From an uncultured delta proteobacterium (lineage in GTDB: Bacteria > Desulfobacterota > Binatia > Binatales > Binataceae): a DNA stretch of 64,000 nt. A program made the position numbers and the translations under genes. This document shows positions 56,611 through 64,000 of this stretch, in pieces (position 1 is the stretch's first letter; every line of letters begins with the position of its first letter). The stretch lies in the NCBI GenBank assembly GCA_963765675.1, contig CAVXXK010000006.1, forward strand, positions 320,001 through 384,000, given 5' to 3'. The notes below the pieces were generated by a model. That model was not told the DNA's origin and did no database searches. It saw only the letters and a list, made by a program, of their open reading frames with translations.

Positions 56611-58413
56611 ATGACGGACCCGGCATCGATTCGCAATTTTTCGATTATCGCGCATATCGATCACGGCAAATCCACGCTTGCCGATCGATTGTTGGAGCGC
56701 ACCGGTGCGCTCACCAAGCGCGAGTTGAAGGAACAGTTCCTCGACTCGATGGACTTGGAGCGTGAGCGCGGCATCACGATCAAAGCGCGCAGCGTGCGCC
56801 TGTCCTACACTTCGCGTGCGGGCAAAACCTACGTGCTCAACCTGATCGACACTCCCGGCCACGTGGATTTCGCCTACGAGGTCTCGCGCAGCCTGGCCGC
56901 GTGCGAGGGCGCGCTGCTGGTCGTCGACGCGAGCCAGGGGGTCGAGGCGCAGACGCTGGCCAATGTTTACCTCGCGCTCGATCACGGGCTTGAAATTATC
57001 CCGGTGATCAACAAGATCGATCTGCCCGGCGCCGACGTCGAGCGAACCCGCCAGCAGATCGAGGAAGTGATCGGCCTGCCCGCCGATGACGCGATTCTAA
57101 CCAGCGCGAAAGAGGGCGTCGGCATCGACGACGTGCTCGAGGCGATCGTAGCGAGAATTCCCGCACCCAAGGCAAATCGCGACGAGCCGCTGCGCGCTCT
57201 CATCTTCGATAGCTGGTACGACAGCTACGAAGGCGTGGTCGGACTGGTGCGCGTCACCAGCGGCGAGCTTCGCCCCGAAATGAAGATCCGCCTCATGGCG
57301 ACGGGTGCGGCGGGCGAAGTGATGCGCCTGGGTCATTTCACACCGCACGAGCAATCCGCCGACATGCTCGGCCCGGGCGAGGTCGGCTACGTCGTCGCGG
57401 GAATCAAGACCGTCGCTGACATGCGCGTGGGCGACACGGTCACCGACGCGGAGCATCCGGCGGCCGAGCCGCTTCCCGGCTTCAAGGAACTCAAGCCGAT
57501 GGTCTTCGCCGGGCTCTACCCGACCGAGGCGAACCAGTATCCCGCTCTGCGCGACGCGATCGAGAAGCTGACGCTCAACGACGCGAGCCTCATCTGCGAG
57601 CCGGAATCCTCGCAGGCGCTGGGCTTCGGCTTCCGCGCCGGATTCCTCGGGTTGCTGCACATGGAGATCGCGCAGGAGCGGCTCGAGCGCGAATTCGGAA
57701 TCAACCTGATCGTCACCGCGCCCACCGTCGCCTACCAGATTCGCACGACTTCCGGTACGACCATGATGGTTGATAATCCGGCGCTGCTTCCGCCCGAGAA
57801 TTCGATCGAGGCGATCGAGGAGCCGTTCATCATCTCGTCGATTCACATGCCCGAGGAATTTTTGGGCGCGGTGATGAAGCTGTGCGAGGACCGCCGCGGC
57901 CTGCAGCGCGATCTCAAGTACCTGGGCGACAAGCGCGTTATCCTGCACTACGAGCTTCCGCTGGCGGAGATTGTGTTCGACTTCTACGACCGGCTCAAAT
58001 CGGTCAGCCGCGGCTACGCGTCGCTCGATTATGACTTTCTGGACTTCCGGTCCGGGCCTCTGGTTAAATTGGATATCAGGATCAACGGTGAGATAATCGA
58101 CGCGCTCTCGATAATTGTGCATCGCGACAAGGCCTACGAACGAGGCCGCGCGCTTTGCTCGAAGATGCGCGAGCTGATTCCGCGCCAGATGTTCGAGGTC
58201 GCGATTCAAGCCGCGATCGGCGCCAAGATTATCGCGCGGGAAACCGTAAGCGCACTGCGCAAGAACGTCACCGCGAAATGCTACGGCGGCGATATCACGC
58301 GCAAACGCAAACTCCTCGAGAAGCAGAAGGAAGGCAAAAAGCGGATGAAGCAAGTCGGCCGCGTCGAAATTCCGCAGGAGGCCTTCCTGGCCCTGCTGAA
58401 GGTCGGGGAGTAA
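56611..58413 (+). CDS. lepA: Elongation factor 4
   Basis: [34 protein letters not shown]. Confidence 0.98.
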
Positions 58414-58418
58414 CCGCG

Positions 58419-59126
58419 GTGAGCGAACCCCTGCGCTCCGCTGAGCGCCGCGAAGTCGCCGCGAGGGCGGTTCCCGCTGCGCGAAAGTCGGTCCTGCGCG
58501 AGTACGGCGAGGCGCTCGGAATCGCGCTGCTCCTGGCGATTCTGATCCGCACTTTCTTTATCCAGGCCTACGAAATTCCGTCGGGTTCGATGGAGCCGAC
58601 GCTGCTGGTCGGCGATCATATCCTGGCCAACAAGCTGGTCTATGGTTTCCGGATGCCGGATTCGATCTTCGGCCTGACTCCCTTCGGTCTGCCTTACGGG
58701 CACTATCTCTTTCGCTTTGAGCCGATTCATCGCGGCGACGTGGTCGTGTTCGTCTATCCGCGCAACCCGAGCGAGGACTATATCAAGCGCGTAGTCGGAA
58801 TCGCGGGCGACGTTGTCCAGATCAAGGACGGCAAGGTATGGCTCAACGGCGCGCCGATGGACGATCCGCACGGGCACTTCGAAGTGCCCGACGCCGACCG
58901 CTCAACCTCGCAGGTGCGCGACTACTTCGGTCCGGTCACCGTGCCGCCGGGCAATCTGTTCATGATGGGCGATAATCGCGACGATAGCTCTGACAGCCGC
59001 TTCTGGGGCTTCGCGCCCGAGGAAAATGTCGAAGGCCGTGCGATGGTGATCTACTGGTCGTGGGACAGCGACGAGGGTGGTATCCTGCCACTGCGATGGT
59101 CGCGTTTCGGGATGCCGGTCCGGTAG
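58419..59126 (+). CDS. lepB: Signal peptidase I (copy 1)
   Basis: IPSGSMEPTL, DYIKRV, GDNRDDSSDSRFWG; GTG start after the lepA stop. Confidence 0.92.
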   Translation: MSEPLRSAERREVAARAVPAARKSVLREYGEALGIALLLAILIRTFFIQAYEIPSGSMEPTLLVGDHILANKLVYGFRMPDSIFGLTPFGLPYGHYLFRFEPIHRGDVVVFVYPRNPSEDYIKRVVGIAGDVVQIKDGKVWLNGAPMDDPHGHFEVPDADRSTSQVRDYFGPVTVPPGNLFMMGDNRDDSSDSRFWGFAPEENVEGRAMVIYWSWDSDEGGILPLRWSRFGMPVR

Positions 59127-59212
59127 GATTGCACGGCACGCGGCAGAGTCGTCAGGAAAGGCGCTGATGATTGATCAGGAATGTATCGCGGAGATGGCGG
59201 AGTAGGGTGGCG

Positions 59213-59962
59213 ATGGGCGAGCCGTTGCGTACGCTGAAGCCTTCCGCGAAGCCGTCGGGATCGTCGCGCCCGGCGCCGCCGCCGGCGCAGAAATCGATCA
59301 CCCGCGAGTACGTCGAGGCGCTCGTGATCGCGCTGCTTCTCGCGGTCGTGATCCGGACGTTTTTCGTCCAGGCCTACAAGATTCCTTCCGGATCGATGGA
59401 GCCCACGCTGCTGGTGGGCGACCACATTCTCGTCAACAAGCTTATCTACGGCTTGCGAATGCCCGATACGCTCTTCGGGATCGACATTGGGTCAGCGCCC
59501 TTCGGCAGGTACCTGTTTCGAATTGAACCGATTCATCATGGCGACGTGGTGGTGTTCGTGTTCCCACCCGACCCGACCAAAGACTTTATCAAGCGGGTGA
59601 TCGGACTTCCGGGCGACATTGTTGCGGTCAAGAATGGCAAAGTATGGCTCAACGGCGCACTGATGCCCGATCCTCACGCGCATTTCGAGGTGCCAGACGC
59701 CGAACGCTCAGCCGTCTCGCCTCGTGACAACTTTCCGCAGATCGGCACGGGAGCCGACACGCTCGGCGCGGTGACCGTTCCGCCGGGAAAGATTTTCGTG
59801 ATGGGGGATAATCGCGATCGGAGCTACGATAGCCGCTTCTGGGGTTTCGTCCCGGAAGACAATGTCGAAGGGCGCGCGATGATTATCTACTGGTCGTGGG
59901 ACTCCGATGGCAGCAGCTTTCTGCCTGTCAGATGGTCGCGCTTCGGGATGATTGTCGAATAG
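59213..59962 (+). CDS. lepB: Signal peptidase I (copy 2)
   Basis: IPSGSMEPTL, DFIKRV, GDNRDRSYDSRFWG. Confidence 0.92.
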   Translation: MGEPLRTLKPSAKPSGSSRPAPPPAQKSITREYVEALVIALLLAVVIRTFFVQAYKIPSGSMEPTLLVGDHILVNKLIYGLRMPDTLFGIDIGSAPFGRYLFRIEPIHHGDVVVFVFPPDPTKDFIKRVIGLPGDIVAVKNGKVWLNGALMPDPHAHFEVPDAERSAVSPRDNFPQIGTGADTLGAVTVPPGKIFVMGDNRDRSYDSRFWGFVPEDNVEGRAMIIYWSWDSDGSSFLPVRWSRFGMIVE

Positions 59963-59978
59963 CCGAAAGGAGCGTCGT

Positions 59979-60557
59979 GTGGCTGCTGCTGAAGATGGCG
60001 TAACAAGAATCGGCGCGATGCTTGAAGAGATGAGCGCGCGCTTCGAACTGGTAATCGAAGCGGTGTCGGGCTACGGCGGCCGTCTCGATGCGCTGCGCCA
60101 GGAGCTCTTCGCCCAATTCGCCGAGGTTGGAAGCCAGATCCGCTTTCTCTCGGATCAGATCGGCGAGAATCGGCGCGGAATCGCGACCATCCGGGCCGAC
60201 CTCGGCGCGGAGATGGTCCGCCTGGGCGAGACGCTGGGCCGCACCCGCGTCGAGTTTCGCGAACAGATCGGAGCCGCCGAGCGCGCGCTGCAGCAGGAGA
60301 TCGGCGCACGCGCCGCCGAGTCGCGCGAGCATACCACCGCCGCAACGGTCCGCGCCGCCGACGATACCGGCGCGAAACTCGGCGAAATCACGGGCACCGC
60401 CGCCAAAAAAATCACCGCCGAGCTCGCCAAGACCAACAAGGCGCTGACGAGCCTCGCGCGCAAATTCGAGCGCTTCGACGATCGAATCACGGTAGCGACC
60501 CGCGACCAGGACCAGCGCCTCCGCAAACTGGAGCAGCGCCGCAAATCCGCGGGCTGA
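59979..60557 (+). CDS. Hypothetical coiled-coil protein
   Basis: AAAGGAG RBS before GTG 59979; almost entirely heptad-like helical sequence. Confidence 0.7.
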   Translation: MAAAEDGVTRIGAMLEEMSARFELVIEAVSGYGGRLDALRQELFAQFAEVGSQIRFLSDQIGENRRGIATIRADLGAEMVRLGETLGRTRVEFREQIGAAERALQQEIGARAAESREHTTAATVRAADDTGAKLGEITGTAAKKITAELAKTNKALTSLARKFERFDDRITVATRDQDQRLRKLEQRRKSAG

Positions 60558-60661
60558 TCAGGAGGCGGTTCTTTTTCGTCATCCCCCGTGTTTTACGGGG
60601 GAGGAATAAGGAGGGGGTGCAGCGCTTGATTTTCTGAGGCGACAGCGTAATAGTAGTCCTA

Positions 60662-60692
60662 CCTTTAATCCGTTACTGAGATAGCGGGAAGG
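60662..60692 (+). promoter_or_regulatory. PyrR-binding stem-loop (pyr attenuator anti-antiterminator)
   Basis: CCTTTAAT-CCGTTA-CTGAGA-TAGCGG-GAAGG: CUUUAA 5' element, CNGNGA hexaloop, AAGG closing strand; upstream of pyrR. Confidence 0.8.
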
Positions 60693-60724
60693 TTAACATG
60701 ATGAATTTCCCTAGCTTTGGCGTA

Positions 60725-60755
60725 CCCGGCTGCATCTGCGGTCGGGATTTTTTTT
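60725..60755 (+). terminator. Intrinsic terminator (attenuator) in the pyrR leader
   Basis: CCCGGCTGCATCTGCGGTCGGG hairpin followed by A and a T8 run. Confidence 0.8.
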
Positions 60756-60786
60756 CGCTCCGAGCGCTTCCGGCAGGGCTCTCACG

Positions 60787-61329
60787 ATGACGCCCAAGCC
60801 GGAAGTCGCGCTCGACGCCAATGCGATCGCGCGTTCGGTCAAGCGAATCGCGCATGAGATTGTCGAGCATAGTGATGGCGCAGGTGCGCTCGTGCTGATC
60901 GGAATCGTGCGCCGCGGTGCGTTCCTGGCCGAGCGAATCGCGGCGGAATTGATACGCGCAGGCCATACCGAGATCCCTGTCGGCACGCTCGATATTTCGT
61001 CTTATCGCGACGACGGCAAAGGCGCGCCCGGCGACCCGCGCCTGCTCGCCCGCGATATCCCGTTTTCGCTCGACGACAAGCGCGTCGTGCTGGTGGATGA
61101 CGTCCTCTACACCGGACGCACCGTGCGCGCCGCACTCGATGCGCTGTCCGACCTCGGGCGGGCTGATTCGATTCAGCTAGCGGTGCTGGTCGATCGCGGC
61201 GAGCGCGAACTTCCTATCCGCGCCGACTTTATCGGCAAGAATATCCAGGCCCCGGCCGGGCAGCGGGTCTATGTCCGGCTGGCCGAGGTTGACGGAACCG
61301 ACGCGGTCGTGGTCGGCAACGGAAAATGA
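60787..61329 (+). CDS. pyrR: Pyr operon attenuation regulator / uracil phosphoribosyltransferase
   Basis: KRIAHEIVE, GTLDISSYRDD, LVDDVLYTGRTVRAA, DRGERELPIRADFIGKN. Confidence 0.95.
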   Translation: MTPKPEVALDANAIARSVKRIAHEIVEHSDGAGALVLIGIVRRGAFLAERIAAELIRAGHTEIPVGTLDISSYRDDGKGAPGDPRLLARDIPFSLDDKRVVLVDDVLYTGRTVRAALDALSDLGRADSIQLAVLVDRGERELPIRADFIGKNIQAPAGQRVYVRLAEVDGTDAVVVGNGK

Positions 61330-63272
61330 CGCGTCTTGGCAAAATCGATCTCGTTTCGATCGAGGATCTCGCGCTGCCCGAGATCGAGCGCATCTTTACG
61401 CTCGCCGACGGTTTCGCCGGTGCGCTCGAGCGTGGGGAATCGCTCACGCTCGCAAGCGGGCTCATCATGGCGACGCTCTTTTACGAGCCCTCGACTCGCA
61501 CGCGGCTCAGTTTCGAATCCGCGATGCATCGGCTTGGCGGCGCCGTGATCAGCTCAGCCGACATGAGTGCGAGCTCGGCAGCCAAAGGCGAGAGCCTGGC
61601 CGACACGGCGCGGATCGTCAGCGGCTACGCGGACCTGATCGTGCTTCGGCATCCGCACGACGGCGCGGCGCGCGTCGCGGCCGACTACGCGCCGTGCCCG
61701 ATCATCAACGCCGGCGACGGCAGCAGGGAGCATCCGACTCAGACGCTGTGCGATCTGTTCACGCTGCGGCGCAAGAAGGGTCAGCTAAAGGGACTCACCG
61801 TTGCGCTTTGCGGAGATTTGAAATTCGGCCGCACCGTCCATTCGCTGATTTACGCGCTCGCGCGCTTCGGCGCGAATATCGTCGCGGTTCCTACCGCCGG
61901 CATGAACGTGCCCGATTACGTGCTCGAACGTCTGGCGGCGGAACGCCACTACAGTTTTTCGACCGTTACGATGGACGAGCTCAAGTCGCTGGCCGGCGGC
62001 CTCGACGCGCTTTACCTGACGCCGAGTGCGCCGCATCAGATGGCGCTGTTCACCGGCGAGGTTCCACTCGACAAGATTCCTGCCGCCGAGCCGCCAGCCT
62101 CGCTCGACGCATTTTATGTCACGCGGCTGCAGAAGGAGCGAATCGCAAGCAAGGACGCAAAGCCTGCCGATTATGTCCGCTTCGACGCGAGCGCGCTAAA
62201 GGGGCATCGTGCACAGGAAGCCGTCGTGATGCATCCGCTGCCGCGCACCGGCGAACTTGCCTACGAACTTGATTCCGATCCGCGAGCGGTATACTTCGAG
62301 CAAGCCGCCGCCGGCGTGCCTGTGAGAATGGCGCTGATCGCTTGGCTCCTGGAGCAGACGCGAGGGGCGCGGCGCGCGCCAGTCGCAGCGCTTGAGAATA
62401 TCCGTATCCAGGCCGAACCGTCGCCGCGATGCGCGAACCCGAATTGCATAACTCGGTTCGAGGGCGCGCATCTGCATCCGCGGTTCAAGCTCACGCGCGC
62501 AGTCGAGCGCAGCGCGCTGCCACTGCGCTGCGATTTTTGCGAGCGCGAATTGCGGGTGGAATTCGTCGGCCACGCGCGAACTCATCGCTACTACCGCTAC
62601 GATGAGAGCCTGTACGGTTACGTCCGCCAGTGGATCGCCGAGGATTCCATGGCCGTGTTCGAAAACGTCAAGCAGGCCGAGGAGACCGGCTACGAACCCT
62701 ACAAGCGCGGGCCTCAGCGCGAAGTGATGAACGCGGACGAAATCGAGCGCGCGGTAGATTCGATGGCTGCGCAAGTGATTGCCGACGTCGCGGACCTCAC
62801 CAATGTCTCGATCGTCGGCGTCGTCAGCCACGGCGCGATGCTCGCGATACGAATGCGCGATCGGATCGCAGCCAAATCCGGAGTCCGTCCGCCTACCGCC
62901 GCGCTGGACCTCTACAATCCCGCCGAGACAGTCGTCGCACTCGACAGCGGCGAGCCGCTCGCGGTCGCGGATCGCGTGATCATAATCGTTGACGATGTGC
63001 TCAACAGCGGGTGGACCGTGCAGCGCGCGATGACCACGCTATGGCAGCAGGGGCGGCCCGCGTCGGTGAAGCTGGCCGTGCTGATCGACCGCGGACATCG
63101 CCTGGTTCCGATTCGCCCCAACTACGTCGGCAAAAACATTCCGACCTCGCGCACCGATCGCGTGCAGGTGCGGCTCGAGCCGCCCGACCGCGAAGGAAAA
63201 CACCCCGCGCATGACCGCGCGATGGTCTATTCGATGGTCGAGGCGCTGAAAGCACCGGAGAGCGTCGGATGA
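61326..63272 (+). CDS. pyrB: Aspartate carbamoyltransferase fused to a PyrI Zn domain, an Ada-like domain and a PyrR-like PRTase domain
   Basis: [50 protein letters not shown]; then CANPNC...CDFCER; then [11 protein letters not shown] and [22 protein letters not shown]. Confidence 0.92.
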
Positions 63273-64000
63273 CCACCGCAGTGCTTATCCGCGGCGGACG
63301 CGTGATCGATCCCGCCTCGGGAATCGACGGGAGCTTCGATCTACTCGTGCAGGACGGCGAGATCGAAGCGCTCGAACCCGCCGGAACGATCGAAGATCCC
63401 GGCAATGTGACCATGATCCACGCCGCGGGATGCTGGGTCGTGCCGGGCCTTATCGACGCGCACGTGCATCTGCGCGACCCCGGCTTCCCGGAAAAGGAAA
63501 CCATCGCGACCGGCCTGCGCGCTGCCGCCGCCGGCGGATTCACCGCCGTCGCTGCGATGGCTAACACCAATCCGGTGAACGACTCGCCCGCGACGACCGC
63601 GTACATGCTCGGGCGTGCCGACGACGCGCATGCTGCGCGCTTGATTCCAGTCTCTGCAGTAACTCGAGGATTGGCGGGCGTCGAGTGTGTGGACTACGCC
63701 GCCATGGCTCAAGCCGGCGCGCGACTCTTCTCCGACGACGGGATGCCGGTTGACGACCCTGTGCTGCTCGGCCGCGCGATGGACGAAATCGGACGATTGA
63801 ATTTGGCTATCTCTCTGCACGAGGAAGATCGCGGCCTGTCCTGCAACGGCGCGGCCAACGCCGGCGAGGTCTCGCGCAGCCTCGGCGTCACCGGATACAG
63901 CGATGCGGCGGAAGCGAAGCGAATCCGGCGCGACTTGGCGCTCGCGATCGGATCCGGTGCGCCGGTTCATATCGCGCACGTATCGACGCGCGAATCGCTC
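63269..64000 (+). CDS. pyrC: Dihydroorotase, long type (runs off window)
   Basis: Not in the ORF track. ATG overlaps the pyrB stop (ATGA); [15 protein letters not shown]...[26 protein letters not shown]...MANT...FSDDG...LHEED...HIAHVST. Confidence 0.92.

Follow-up and report, generated by a model that had tools for sequence, protein, structure and literature searches.

A single-chain aspartate carbamoyltransferase with a PyrI-type zinc domain and a PyrR-derived phosphoribosyltransferase domain: a possible new allosteric architecture

Introduction

How might an aspartate carbamoyltransferase (ATCase) be controlled when it has the docking domain of a PyrI regulatory chain, lacks the PyrI nucleotide sensor, and ends in a domain of PyrR type? 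The question is raised by a gene in the stretch of DNA analysed here (the window), which comprises 64,000 nt of contig CAVXXK010000006.1 of assembly GCA_963765675.1, positions 320,001-384,000 of the forward strand, from an uncultured member of the Binataceae. The gene (61326..63272, + strand) encodes a protein of 648 residues composed of a PyrB catalytic part, a zinc domain, a connector and a PyrR-like domain. ATCase is a textbook model of allosteric regulation, and to our knowledge the ways in which it is regulated are few: PyrI chains in class B, an inactive dihydroorotase partner with N-terminal nucleotide sites in class A, direct binding of uridine monophosphate (UMP) in plants, and none in class C. 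The best reading that we can offer of the present protein is that its C-terminal domain would be a non-catalytic nucleotide sensor and would bridge catalytic trimers in the way that dimers of PyrI do. The literature searched yielded no account of the layout, and an earlier note on this DNA knew of no characterisation of the architecture. Automatic database names for such proteins are 'aspartate carbamoyltransferase catalytic subunit' or 'phosphoribosyltransferase family protein'.

Results

One frame encoding a PyrI-partnered type of catalytic chain

The fused gene is a single uninterrupted open reading frame (ORF) that overlaps by 4 bases both the upstream pyrR and the downstream pyrC, and no stop codons separate its domains. 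The earlier note had read it in this way, as one frame of 648 residues with a complete PyrB at its start, and had proposed a scan with hidden Markov models (HMMs). Scanning the protein against Pfam revealed all of the expected families, namely OTCace_N at residues 8-148 (E 3e-44), OTCace in two stretches (the best at 259-341, E 2e-18), PyrI_C at residues 368-410 (31.4 bits, cutoff 23.4) and Pribosyltran at residues 469-602 (E 2e-14, 54 bits, gathering score 26.3). The NCBIfam model of ATCase, TIGR00670, matched the protein at 290.1 bits compared to a cutoff of 236.95 (293.3 bits in the genome scan), and the fused gene was its sole match above cutoff in the 4.5-Mb, 95.6%-complete genome. A second match to this model, on contig C1, scored 144 bits, below the cutoff, and may be an ornithine carbamoyltransferase. 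On these profile scores, the fused gene appears to encode the only aspartate carbamoyltransferase of the organism. The allosteric domain of PyrI (PF01948) was found neither in the fused protein with Pfam nor in the genome, as the earlier note had claimed for the protein, and the control search detected PF01948 in 7 of 14 reference genomes.

The carbamoyl-phosphate-binding domain (residues 8-148; 61347..61769, +; PF02729, E 3e-44) contains STRTR, R108-H109 and HPTQ, and the aspartate-binding domain with the C-terminal helix (residues 149-345; 61770..62360, +; PF00185 in two stretches) contains R169, TRLQKER and HPLPR. The catalytic motifs S-T-R-T-R, R-H, H-P-T-Q, R169, T-R-x-Q and H-P-L-P-R are thus all present in the fused protein, and they are invariant in 43 of 43 aligned relatives; we take these residues to correspond to the catalytic residues in E. 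coli ATCase numbering. The solved chains closest to the catalytic half are ATCases partnered by PyrI, from M. jannaschii (2rgw, 268 bits), P. abyssi (1ml4, 260 bits) and E. coli (~221 bits), with the unregulated Bacillus enzyme (2at2, 120 bits) and the Aquifex enzyme (94 bits) lying far behind. These matches point to a catalytic half of the PyrI-partnered ATCase type.

The aspartate domain also carries a family-specific insertion of ~39 residues (~220-258; 61983..62099, +), directly N-terminal of the strand with R267 and Q269, which the earlier note does not mention. This insertion is left unaligned against 2rgw, is missing from the PyrB of four non-carrier relatives and is modelled with low confidence (predicted local distance difference test, pLDDT, below 50). 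Five of its residues, D227, Y230, P233, Q238 and L241, are invariant in 43 of 43 fused relatives, divergent clades included.

The PyrI-type zinc domain and the connector

Behind the catalytic half lies a zinc domain of PyrI type (residues 367-410; 62424..62555, +; PF02748), with C369, C374, C402 and C405 as its ligands. The string CANPNCIT...LRCDFCER, which led the earlier note to place a PyrI zinc domain here, occupies residues 369-407 (62430-62546), and the assignment is supported by the PyrI_C match, which reaches 35.2 bits on the isolated piece, and by the invariance of the four Cys in 43 of 43 full-length relatives and 20 of 20 pieces covering the zinc domain and the connector. The profile of these 20 relatives retrieved PyrI regulatory chains from the PDB with an E value of ~1e-4 over positions 9-56.

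The zinc domain is followed by a conserved connector of 55 residues (411-465; 62556..62720, +), predicted to fold as beta-beta-beta-alpha-beta-alpha and modelled with moderate confidence (pLDDT 71-87). Its motif F-x-S-[IV]-K-[QE]-A-E-E-x-G-Y-E-P-[YF]-K-x-G-P-Q-R is kept in both clades compared, and W436, F445, A451, P458 and Y459 are invariant among the 43 aligned relatives.

The label 'Ada-like', which the earlier note had given to this unit, found no support in sequence and profile searches and weak support in comparisons of fold. Searches of Pfam at E<=10 with pieces of 65 and 111 residues gave no match other than PyrI_C, and no Ada chain was found at E<=10 when the profile of the zinc domain and connector was searched against PDB sequences. 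A feature search of the ESM Atlas returned no usable match, and Foldseek with the model of both units found nothing at E<=0.001. Comparison of the predicted structure by VIA-align ranked the Ada N-domain 1u8b_A first of 48,161 chains, weakly (Z 4.8, root-mean-square deviation 3.7 Å, 63 residues), and gave the Ada chain 1eyf_A a weak Z of 3.6, both below the value of 8 under which, following the guidance for this method, a match may reflect a common arrangement. In Foldseek, 1u8b ranked second, again as a weak match (E 1.1, TM 0.31). Residues 411-465 of the window protein contain no Cys and hence none of the four ligands of Ada; the connector in some other clades keeps one (R-Y-C-x-Y-D). The connector motif may resemble the Ada segment that ends in the last two Cys ligands. 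Because Z stays below 8, no Cys ligand is present, and no sequence or profile match was obtained, we call the unit a connector rather than Ada-like; the likeness is an unproven resemblance of predicted fold, and neither methyl transfer nor binding of DNA is to be expected on its account.

An old PyrR paralogue with an altered pocket

The remainder of the chain (residues 466-648; 62721..63269, +; PF00156) corresponds to a type I phosphoribosyltransferase (PRTase) domain which the earlier note had described as PyrR-like. This is borne out by the search of the PDB, in which the best solved relatives are PyrR proteins (E 3.5e-29), and by the column comparison described below. The best NCBIfam match to residues 464-623 is also PyrR, NF003549, at 129.6 bits, under the cutoff of 138, with the other PyrR models further below theirs. 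The loop expected to bind phosphoribosyl pyrophosphate (PRPP) or phosphate spans residues 552-565 (62979..63020, +), with D556, D557, G562 and T564 invariant and Trp563 at the position of a PyrR Arg. The corresponding motif V-D-D-V...S-G-x-T, which holds the acidic pair and the phosphate loop of type I PRTases, is invariant in the fused domains. This loop, like the other strings quoted in the earlier note, including helix 1 set against RSVKRIAHEI of the adjacent PyrR, lies where it had been placed.

The origin of the domain was addressed with a tree of 111 rows, made up of 78 short PyrR-like representatives, 22 fused domains and 11 PyrRs adjoining fusions, with 31 of the 43 aligned fused rows left out as near-duplicates. 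The fused domains of the taxonomic class to which the window's organism belongs fall, together with the fused form P0245, on one side of a branch with a Shimodaira-Hasegawa-like approximate likelihood ratio test (SH-aLRT) value of 96; six short rows found there too evidently represent pieces of fused proteins. Among ordinary PyrRs, those adjacent to fusions group in a clade of their own (SH-aLRT 98), and three other fused forms, P0247, P0383 and P0288, are placed on the PyrR side, where the branching is not settled. At every one of 11 loci the fused domain is 31-43% identical to the neighbouring PyrR, and both clades show the same order of branching by family. Given the separate clade and this level of identity, the fused domain is an old PyrR paralogue and no copy of the adjacent PyrR.

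According to a review (PMC7430163), PyrR proteins possess uracil phosphoribosyltransferase (UPRTase) activity, and the UMP-bound PyrR dimer binds RNA via a basic concave surface, with guanosine monophosphate (GMP) antagonising the binding. Alignment columns of 83 PyrRs were compared with 36 fused sequences from the window's family and with two further fused sets of 11 and 6, six fragments having been dropped first. The fused domain keeps G498, G503, R509, D556, D557, G562, T564, G576-R-P, D588-R-G-H-R592, P595, G602 and K603, and a pocket core consisting of D556, D557, G562, T564, D588-R-G-H-R592, P595, G602 and K603 is invariant across the fused clades. By this comparison, it retains the ribose-phosphate binding core of type I PRTases.

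Other positions differ. The flexible R-D-D loop, found in 96-98% of the 83 PyrRs, is variable in the window's family and in its sister clades and is kept in deep lineages. At the position of the phosphate-loop Arg (R111, 99% of PyrRs), all 36 sequences of the window's family have Trp, and most of the other fused clades have kept Arg. R114 (94%) is Gln in the window's family, Lys in sister clades and Ser in deep lineages, and D147 (93%) is Asn or Gln in the fused domains. In helix 1, R20 (87%) is Ser or Glu in the fused domains and mostly Lys in deep lineages, in line with the remark of the earlier note that the basic residues of the true PyrR are missing there. Alignment with solved PyrRs further places Asp478 and Ala482 at the helix-1 Thr and His positions; these two PyrR residues are said to have been reported by Savacool and Switzer in 2002 as important for RNA binding. 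The fused domain has thus lost residues that are conserved in PyrR for its catalytic and RNA-binding roles, and, because the R-D-D loop and the loop Arg are lost in the window's family, its ligand set there may differ from that of PyrR. The most divergent fused forms (P0247/P0383 and P0288) retain both the R-D-D loop and the loop Arg of PyrR; they may stand for an early stage that was closer to PyrR, or the fusion may have arisen a second time.

Predicted pairing of the PRTase domain

Using two copies of residues 466-648 and their alignment, a symmetric homodimer was predicted with a median score of 0.43, compared to 0.00 for the best control. At least 95% of contacts are shared between the runs, with a partner pLDDT of 81-82. 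Of the reference cases, 20 of 30 solved one-chain pairs, but also 1 of 23 single chains, attain the mark applied to this score, 0.42. The predicted interface involves residues 554, 565-573, 579-583 and 593-599, and includes the fused-specific substitutions at 566, 567, 593, 594 and 599, a pattern that would be expected if the paralogue were insulated from pairing with PyrR.

Distribution and integrity of the architecture

A word-indexed search with residues 346-648 returned 583 proteins at E<=0.001. Among the 120 of these that were listed, 112 have all four Pfam domains, 6 are truncated at the N-terminus and 2 lack the PyrI_C call only. An exhaustive search of sequences clustered at 50% gave 3836 matches, just 20 of them at E<=1e-30, the rest being plain PyrRs of ~180 residues. 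The forms P0245, P0247 and P0288 are full-length fused proteins with the same four Pfam domains, at 39%, 34% and 30% identity over the C-terminal 303 residues.

When the zinc domain and connector were used as a probe, 6 of 301 genomes in a sample of the phylum and 59 of 201 in a sample of the class were found to be carriers, the window's own genome being included in both counts. The same four domains recur across relatives in five families of the class, an answer to the architecture search suggested in the earlier note: f1 (25 of 25 genomes), f102 (19 of 19), f6 (11 of 13), f108 (2 of 2) and f100 (1 of 1), or 58 of 60 genomes altogether, with 0 of 140 genomes positive in the other 15 families of the class. 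The unpublished f1 genome G378 enters the class-sample count only. Carriers bear the source names Candidatus Binataceae, Binatus or 'delta proteobacterium', as metagenome-assembled genomes, and 236 genomes of the named species collection encode a relative of the probe. Identity between families is 55-59% for the catalytic part, 36-46% for the zinc domain and connector and 32-43% for the PRTase domain. The architecture is thus fixed across a long divergence, with long purifying selection on all of its parts.

No PyrI_C was found in five high-quality non-carriers of the class. Four of them have another type of PyrB, 34-37% identical, with H-P-G-P replacing H-P-L-P-R and without the insertion; the fifth, G320, gave no PyrB match at E<=1e-20. 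Since the PyrB of non-carriers differs in type, the fused gene represents a distinct ATCase lineage within the class and not a decorated form of the local PyrB.

Frames of at least 624 residues run through the module in 56 of the 59 carrier genomes. Breaks of frame inside the gene were seen in 5 of 80 named loci, at residues ~117-156, ~545, ~250, 289/531 and ~220, with none at the junction of PyrB and the zinc domain. No public RNA run was listed as containing the sequence, and no run contained half of its words. Contig fragments from four public runs are at most 390 bases long, with no indels listed, and none of them cover 62305-62505, so that they have no bearing on the junction.

Two further possibilities were considered and set aside. 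Proteins of ~310 residues with PyrI_C and PRTase domains could have indicated a split regulatory chain; most of them have their first residue within the final helix of PyrB or come from contigs of ~1 kb, and are best explained as truncated calls. Two short forms from long contigs, P0131 and P0135, have their start directly behind PyrB. As for spread outside the class, matches in Limnocylindrales (5-kb contig), Trinickia (1.6 kb) and Acidiferrales (75% identity) have the look of errors in binning or labelling. P0245, a form labelled Acidoferrales and taken from a 250-kb contig, groups inside the class's fused clade, and transfer and mis-binning cannot be told apart in this case.

Operon context

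The gene immediately upstream (60787..61329, +) encodes a stand-alone protein of 180 residues that scores 211.5 bits on NF003549, above the cutoff of 138, and retains both the R-D-D loop and the phosphate-loop Arg. As the earlier note had proposed, this is a genuine PyrR, and two PyrR-type proteins thus coexist in the organism. A leader resembling a PyrR-binding attenuator (60658..60756, +) ends 30 bases upstream of pyrR, with a binding loop, a terminator hairpin and a U-run. It matches the full RF00515 model at 33.7 bits (E 0.11), under the gathering score of 54. Of five other carrier loci searched, four also have a match to RF00515 upstream of pyrR, at 57.4 bits in L022 (above the gathering score), 48.6 in L019, 46.3 in L020 and 33.7 in L026; L027 gave no match at E<=1. 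At all 11 loci compared, the fused gene directly follows pyrR and is itself followed by carB.

Downstream of the fused gene, the dihydroorotase gene pyrC (63269..64000, +) continues past the window end. Its part in the window matches PF12890 and PF01979; the full-length protein of 455 residues in the genome scores 358 bits on TIGR00857 pyrC_multi (cutoff 279), and carA and carB come next. Located between the fused gene and carB, pyrC is present in 6 of 11 loci (families f1, f102 and f100) and was not found there by BLAST in the other five, L019, L024, L021, L023 and L028 (f108 and f6). Given that it is undetected at this position in the f108 and f6 loci, the fused ATCase is not always paired with an adjacent dihydroorotase. 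The uracil phosphoribosyltransferase gene upp (TIGR01091) was not found in the 95.6%-complete genome, so that the PyrR-type proteins may be its only UPRTase candidates.

Other observations concern the surroundings of the operon. In carA of the same genome (L115:~2290-2330, ~1.5 kb past the window end), the frame changes within the GATase domain, stopping after '...LALGGK' with the remaining domain in another frame, and the same-genus locus L027 reads through; either the assembly is wrong here or the frameshift is real. An ORF of 201 residues (59952-60557, +), located between lepB and the pyr leader, is conserved, with 97% identity in L027 and 58% in L026, and has no NCBIfam match at E<=1e-5. 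A gene for a GTPase-like protein of 600 residues (56611-58413) is followed by tandem paralogues that are 64% identical (58155-59126 and 59171-59962, +). Judging from sequence motifs, these are presumably signal peptidase I genes following lepA.

Discussion

A candidate sensor bridging catalytic trimers

In the mechanism that we propose, the zinc domain would attach to the catalytic chain in the docking mode of class B ATCase, and the PRTase domains would pair across two catalytic trimers, like the dimers of PyrI allosteric domains, to give a (fused chain)6 particle. A phosphoribosyl ligand would bind in the PRTase pocket, the candidates being UMP or uridine triphosphate (UTP), a guanine nucleotide, and PRPP. 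Its signal would travel via the connector and the zinc domain, perhaps with the insertion beside the 240s-loop region, and alter ATCase activity. The stand-alone PyrR would retain attenuation of the operon through the leader RNA, and the pathway would be read twice by PyrR-type proteins, at the level of transcription and at the level of the enzyme. We consider it somewhat probable, a little above an even chance, that the zinc domain docks in this manner, that the PRTase domains dimerise across trimers and that ligand occupancy modulates activity. More tentative, and in our estimate somewhat short of even, is the wider proposal of a fourth regulatory class of ATCase, in which a PyrR paralogue would serve as the allosteric module, anchored by the PyrI zinc domain and a new connector, with its dimers bridging two trimers.

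Several points weigh against such a sensor. Whereas the sensor of PyrI precedes the zinc domain, the PRTase domain follows it on the C-terminal side, and because it also stands behind an extra connector, a PyrI-like geometry is not guaranteed. For the same reason, the view of the earlier note that a PyrR-derived domain had replaced the domain for cytidine and adenosine triphosphate (CTP and ATP) stands only in part: that sensor is absent and a PyrR-derived domain is present, and 'replaced' is a loose term for a domain in a different position. The homodimer score of 0.43 barely passes the mark of 0.42, and this pass may reflect likeness to solved PyrR dimers rather than binding. The full-length model is poor at residues 233-327 (pLDDT below 50). 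With the loop Arg and R114 lost, the pocket in the window's family might no longer bind nucleotides, and the roles assigned to the PyrR residues lost from the fused domain are presumed ones. Ligand binding, the oligomer and allostery are, all three, features that we infer.

Other explanations of the C-terminal domain

The predicted homodimer would also suit a domain acting as an assembly scaffold only, which would hold two trimers together, either for stability or in a complex with dihydroorotase, around a vestigial pocket that senses nothing. Such a role would agree with the alteration of several PyrR pocket residues and with the pyrC of 'pyrC_multi' type that follows in some families. However, pocket residues outside the predicted interface (D556, D557, G562, T564, G498, G503 and R509) are invariant over clades only 30-40% identical, which indicates selection on the pocket itself, and we regard a pure scaffold as unlikely. 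Alternatively, the chain would be a bifunctional enzyme whose C-terminal domain is an active UPRTase, uniting salvage and de novo synthesis without any sensor. The absence of a detectable upp, the intact acidic D-D pair and phosphate loop, the retention of R-D-D and the loop Arg in the deepest fused lineages (the P0247 group and P0288) and the UPRTase activity attributed to PyrR proteins in the review cited above (PMC7430163) would all be compatible with this. Yet in the window's family R-D-D, present in 96-98% of the 83 PyrRs, has degenerated, and all 36 sequences have Trp in place of the loop Arg, while the adjacent genuine PyrR keeps these residues and could supply the activity; retention of the PyrI zinc domain would also make little sense in a mere fusion of enzymes. 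We therefore rate this explanation as less likely again than the scaffold.

A still lower probability is given to the idea that the stand-alone PyrR, or else pyr mRNA, is a binding partner of the fused domain, which would couple attenuation physically to the enzyme. It draws on the predicted dimer surface of PyrR type, on the adjacent pyrR that is inherited together with the fused gene at all 11 loci, and on the parallel branching of the two clades. Against it, the substitutions at 566, 567, 593, 594 and 599 are those expected of insulated paralogues, the basic residue of helix 1 is lost, and the His reportedly needed for RNA binding is aligned with Ala in the fused protein. Finally, two or three adjacent genes might have been joined by an error of sequencing or assembly, as the in-gene frame breaks in 5 of 80 named loci and the short gene calls of ~310 residues could suggest. 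Considering that frames of at least 624 residues are found in 56 of 59 carrier genomes, that the breaks are scattered and never at the 345-367 junction, and that the start of most short forms falls within the final helix of PyrB, as expected of truncated calls, an artefact has a negligible probability and can, on the sequences compared, be taken as already refuted for the fused family.

Implications

If the bridging sensor that we favour exists, a single sensor family would act on one pathway twice, by attenuation at the RNA level and by control of the enzyme's activity. An enzyme of the proposed fourth class would obey the ligand logic of PyrR, with pyrimidine nucleotides acting against purine nucleotides or PRPP, instead of responding to CTP and ATP, and the change from Arg to Trp in the window's family would retune the pocket further, to a different ligand. 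With the docking domain of PyrI kept and the sensor exchanged for a PyrR-type fold, the protein would amount to a natural domain-swap experiment on how allosteric control can be rebuilt.

Comparison with known systems

The N-terminal zinc domain of Ada (1u8b, 1eyf) is comparable to the connector only, as its top-ranked though weak fold match; the connector differs in having no HMM or profile match to this domain (PF02805) and no Cys ligand. Fusions of PyrB and PyrI occur in Thermotoga and Treponema. These proteins (NF009916/PRK13376) likewise have catalytic and regulatory parts on a single chain, but carry a whole PyrI, including PF01948, and no PRTase domain. The window protein scores 82.5 bits on NF009916, compared to a cutoff of 800, and T. 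maritima was positive in the control searches.

With PyrR (1a3c, 1non, 1ufr, 1w30, 4p81), the fused domain shares the fold, the signature LAVL-D-R-G-H-R-x-x-P-I-R...G-K-N and, as predicted, a symmetric dimer of PyrR type. It differs from PyrR in scoring under the NCBIfam cutoff (129.6 compared to 138), in forming a separate clade, in being tethered to an enzyme instead of free and, in the window's family, in the loss of R-D-D, the loop Arg, R114, D147 and helix-1 R20. The nearest parallel for the whole enzyme is class B ATCase (PyrB6-PyrI6, in E. coli, M. jannaschii 2rgw and P. abyssi 1ml4), with which it shares the type of catalytic chain, as seen from the best PDB matches, and the zinc domain with its four Cys, by which the regulatory chain of class B is docked on the catalytic one. 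Class B enzymes assemble as c6r6 and are inhibited by CTP/UTP and activated by ATP. The predicted homodimer of the PRTase domain may be likened to the bridging sensor dimer of class B. In contrast to class B, the fused protein has no PyrI allosteric domain, carries a PyrR-type PRTase as its putative sensor on the C-terminal rather than the N-terminal side of the zinc domain, and combines an extra connector and a 39-residue insertion in the aspartate domain, all on one chain.

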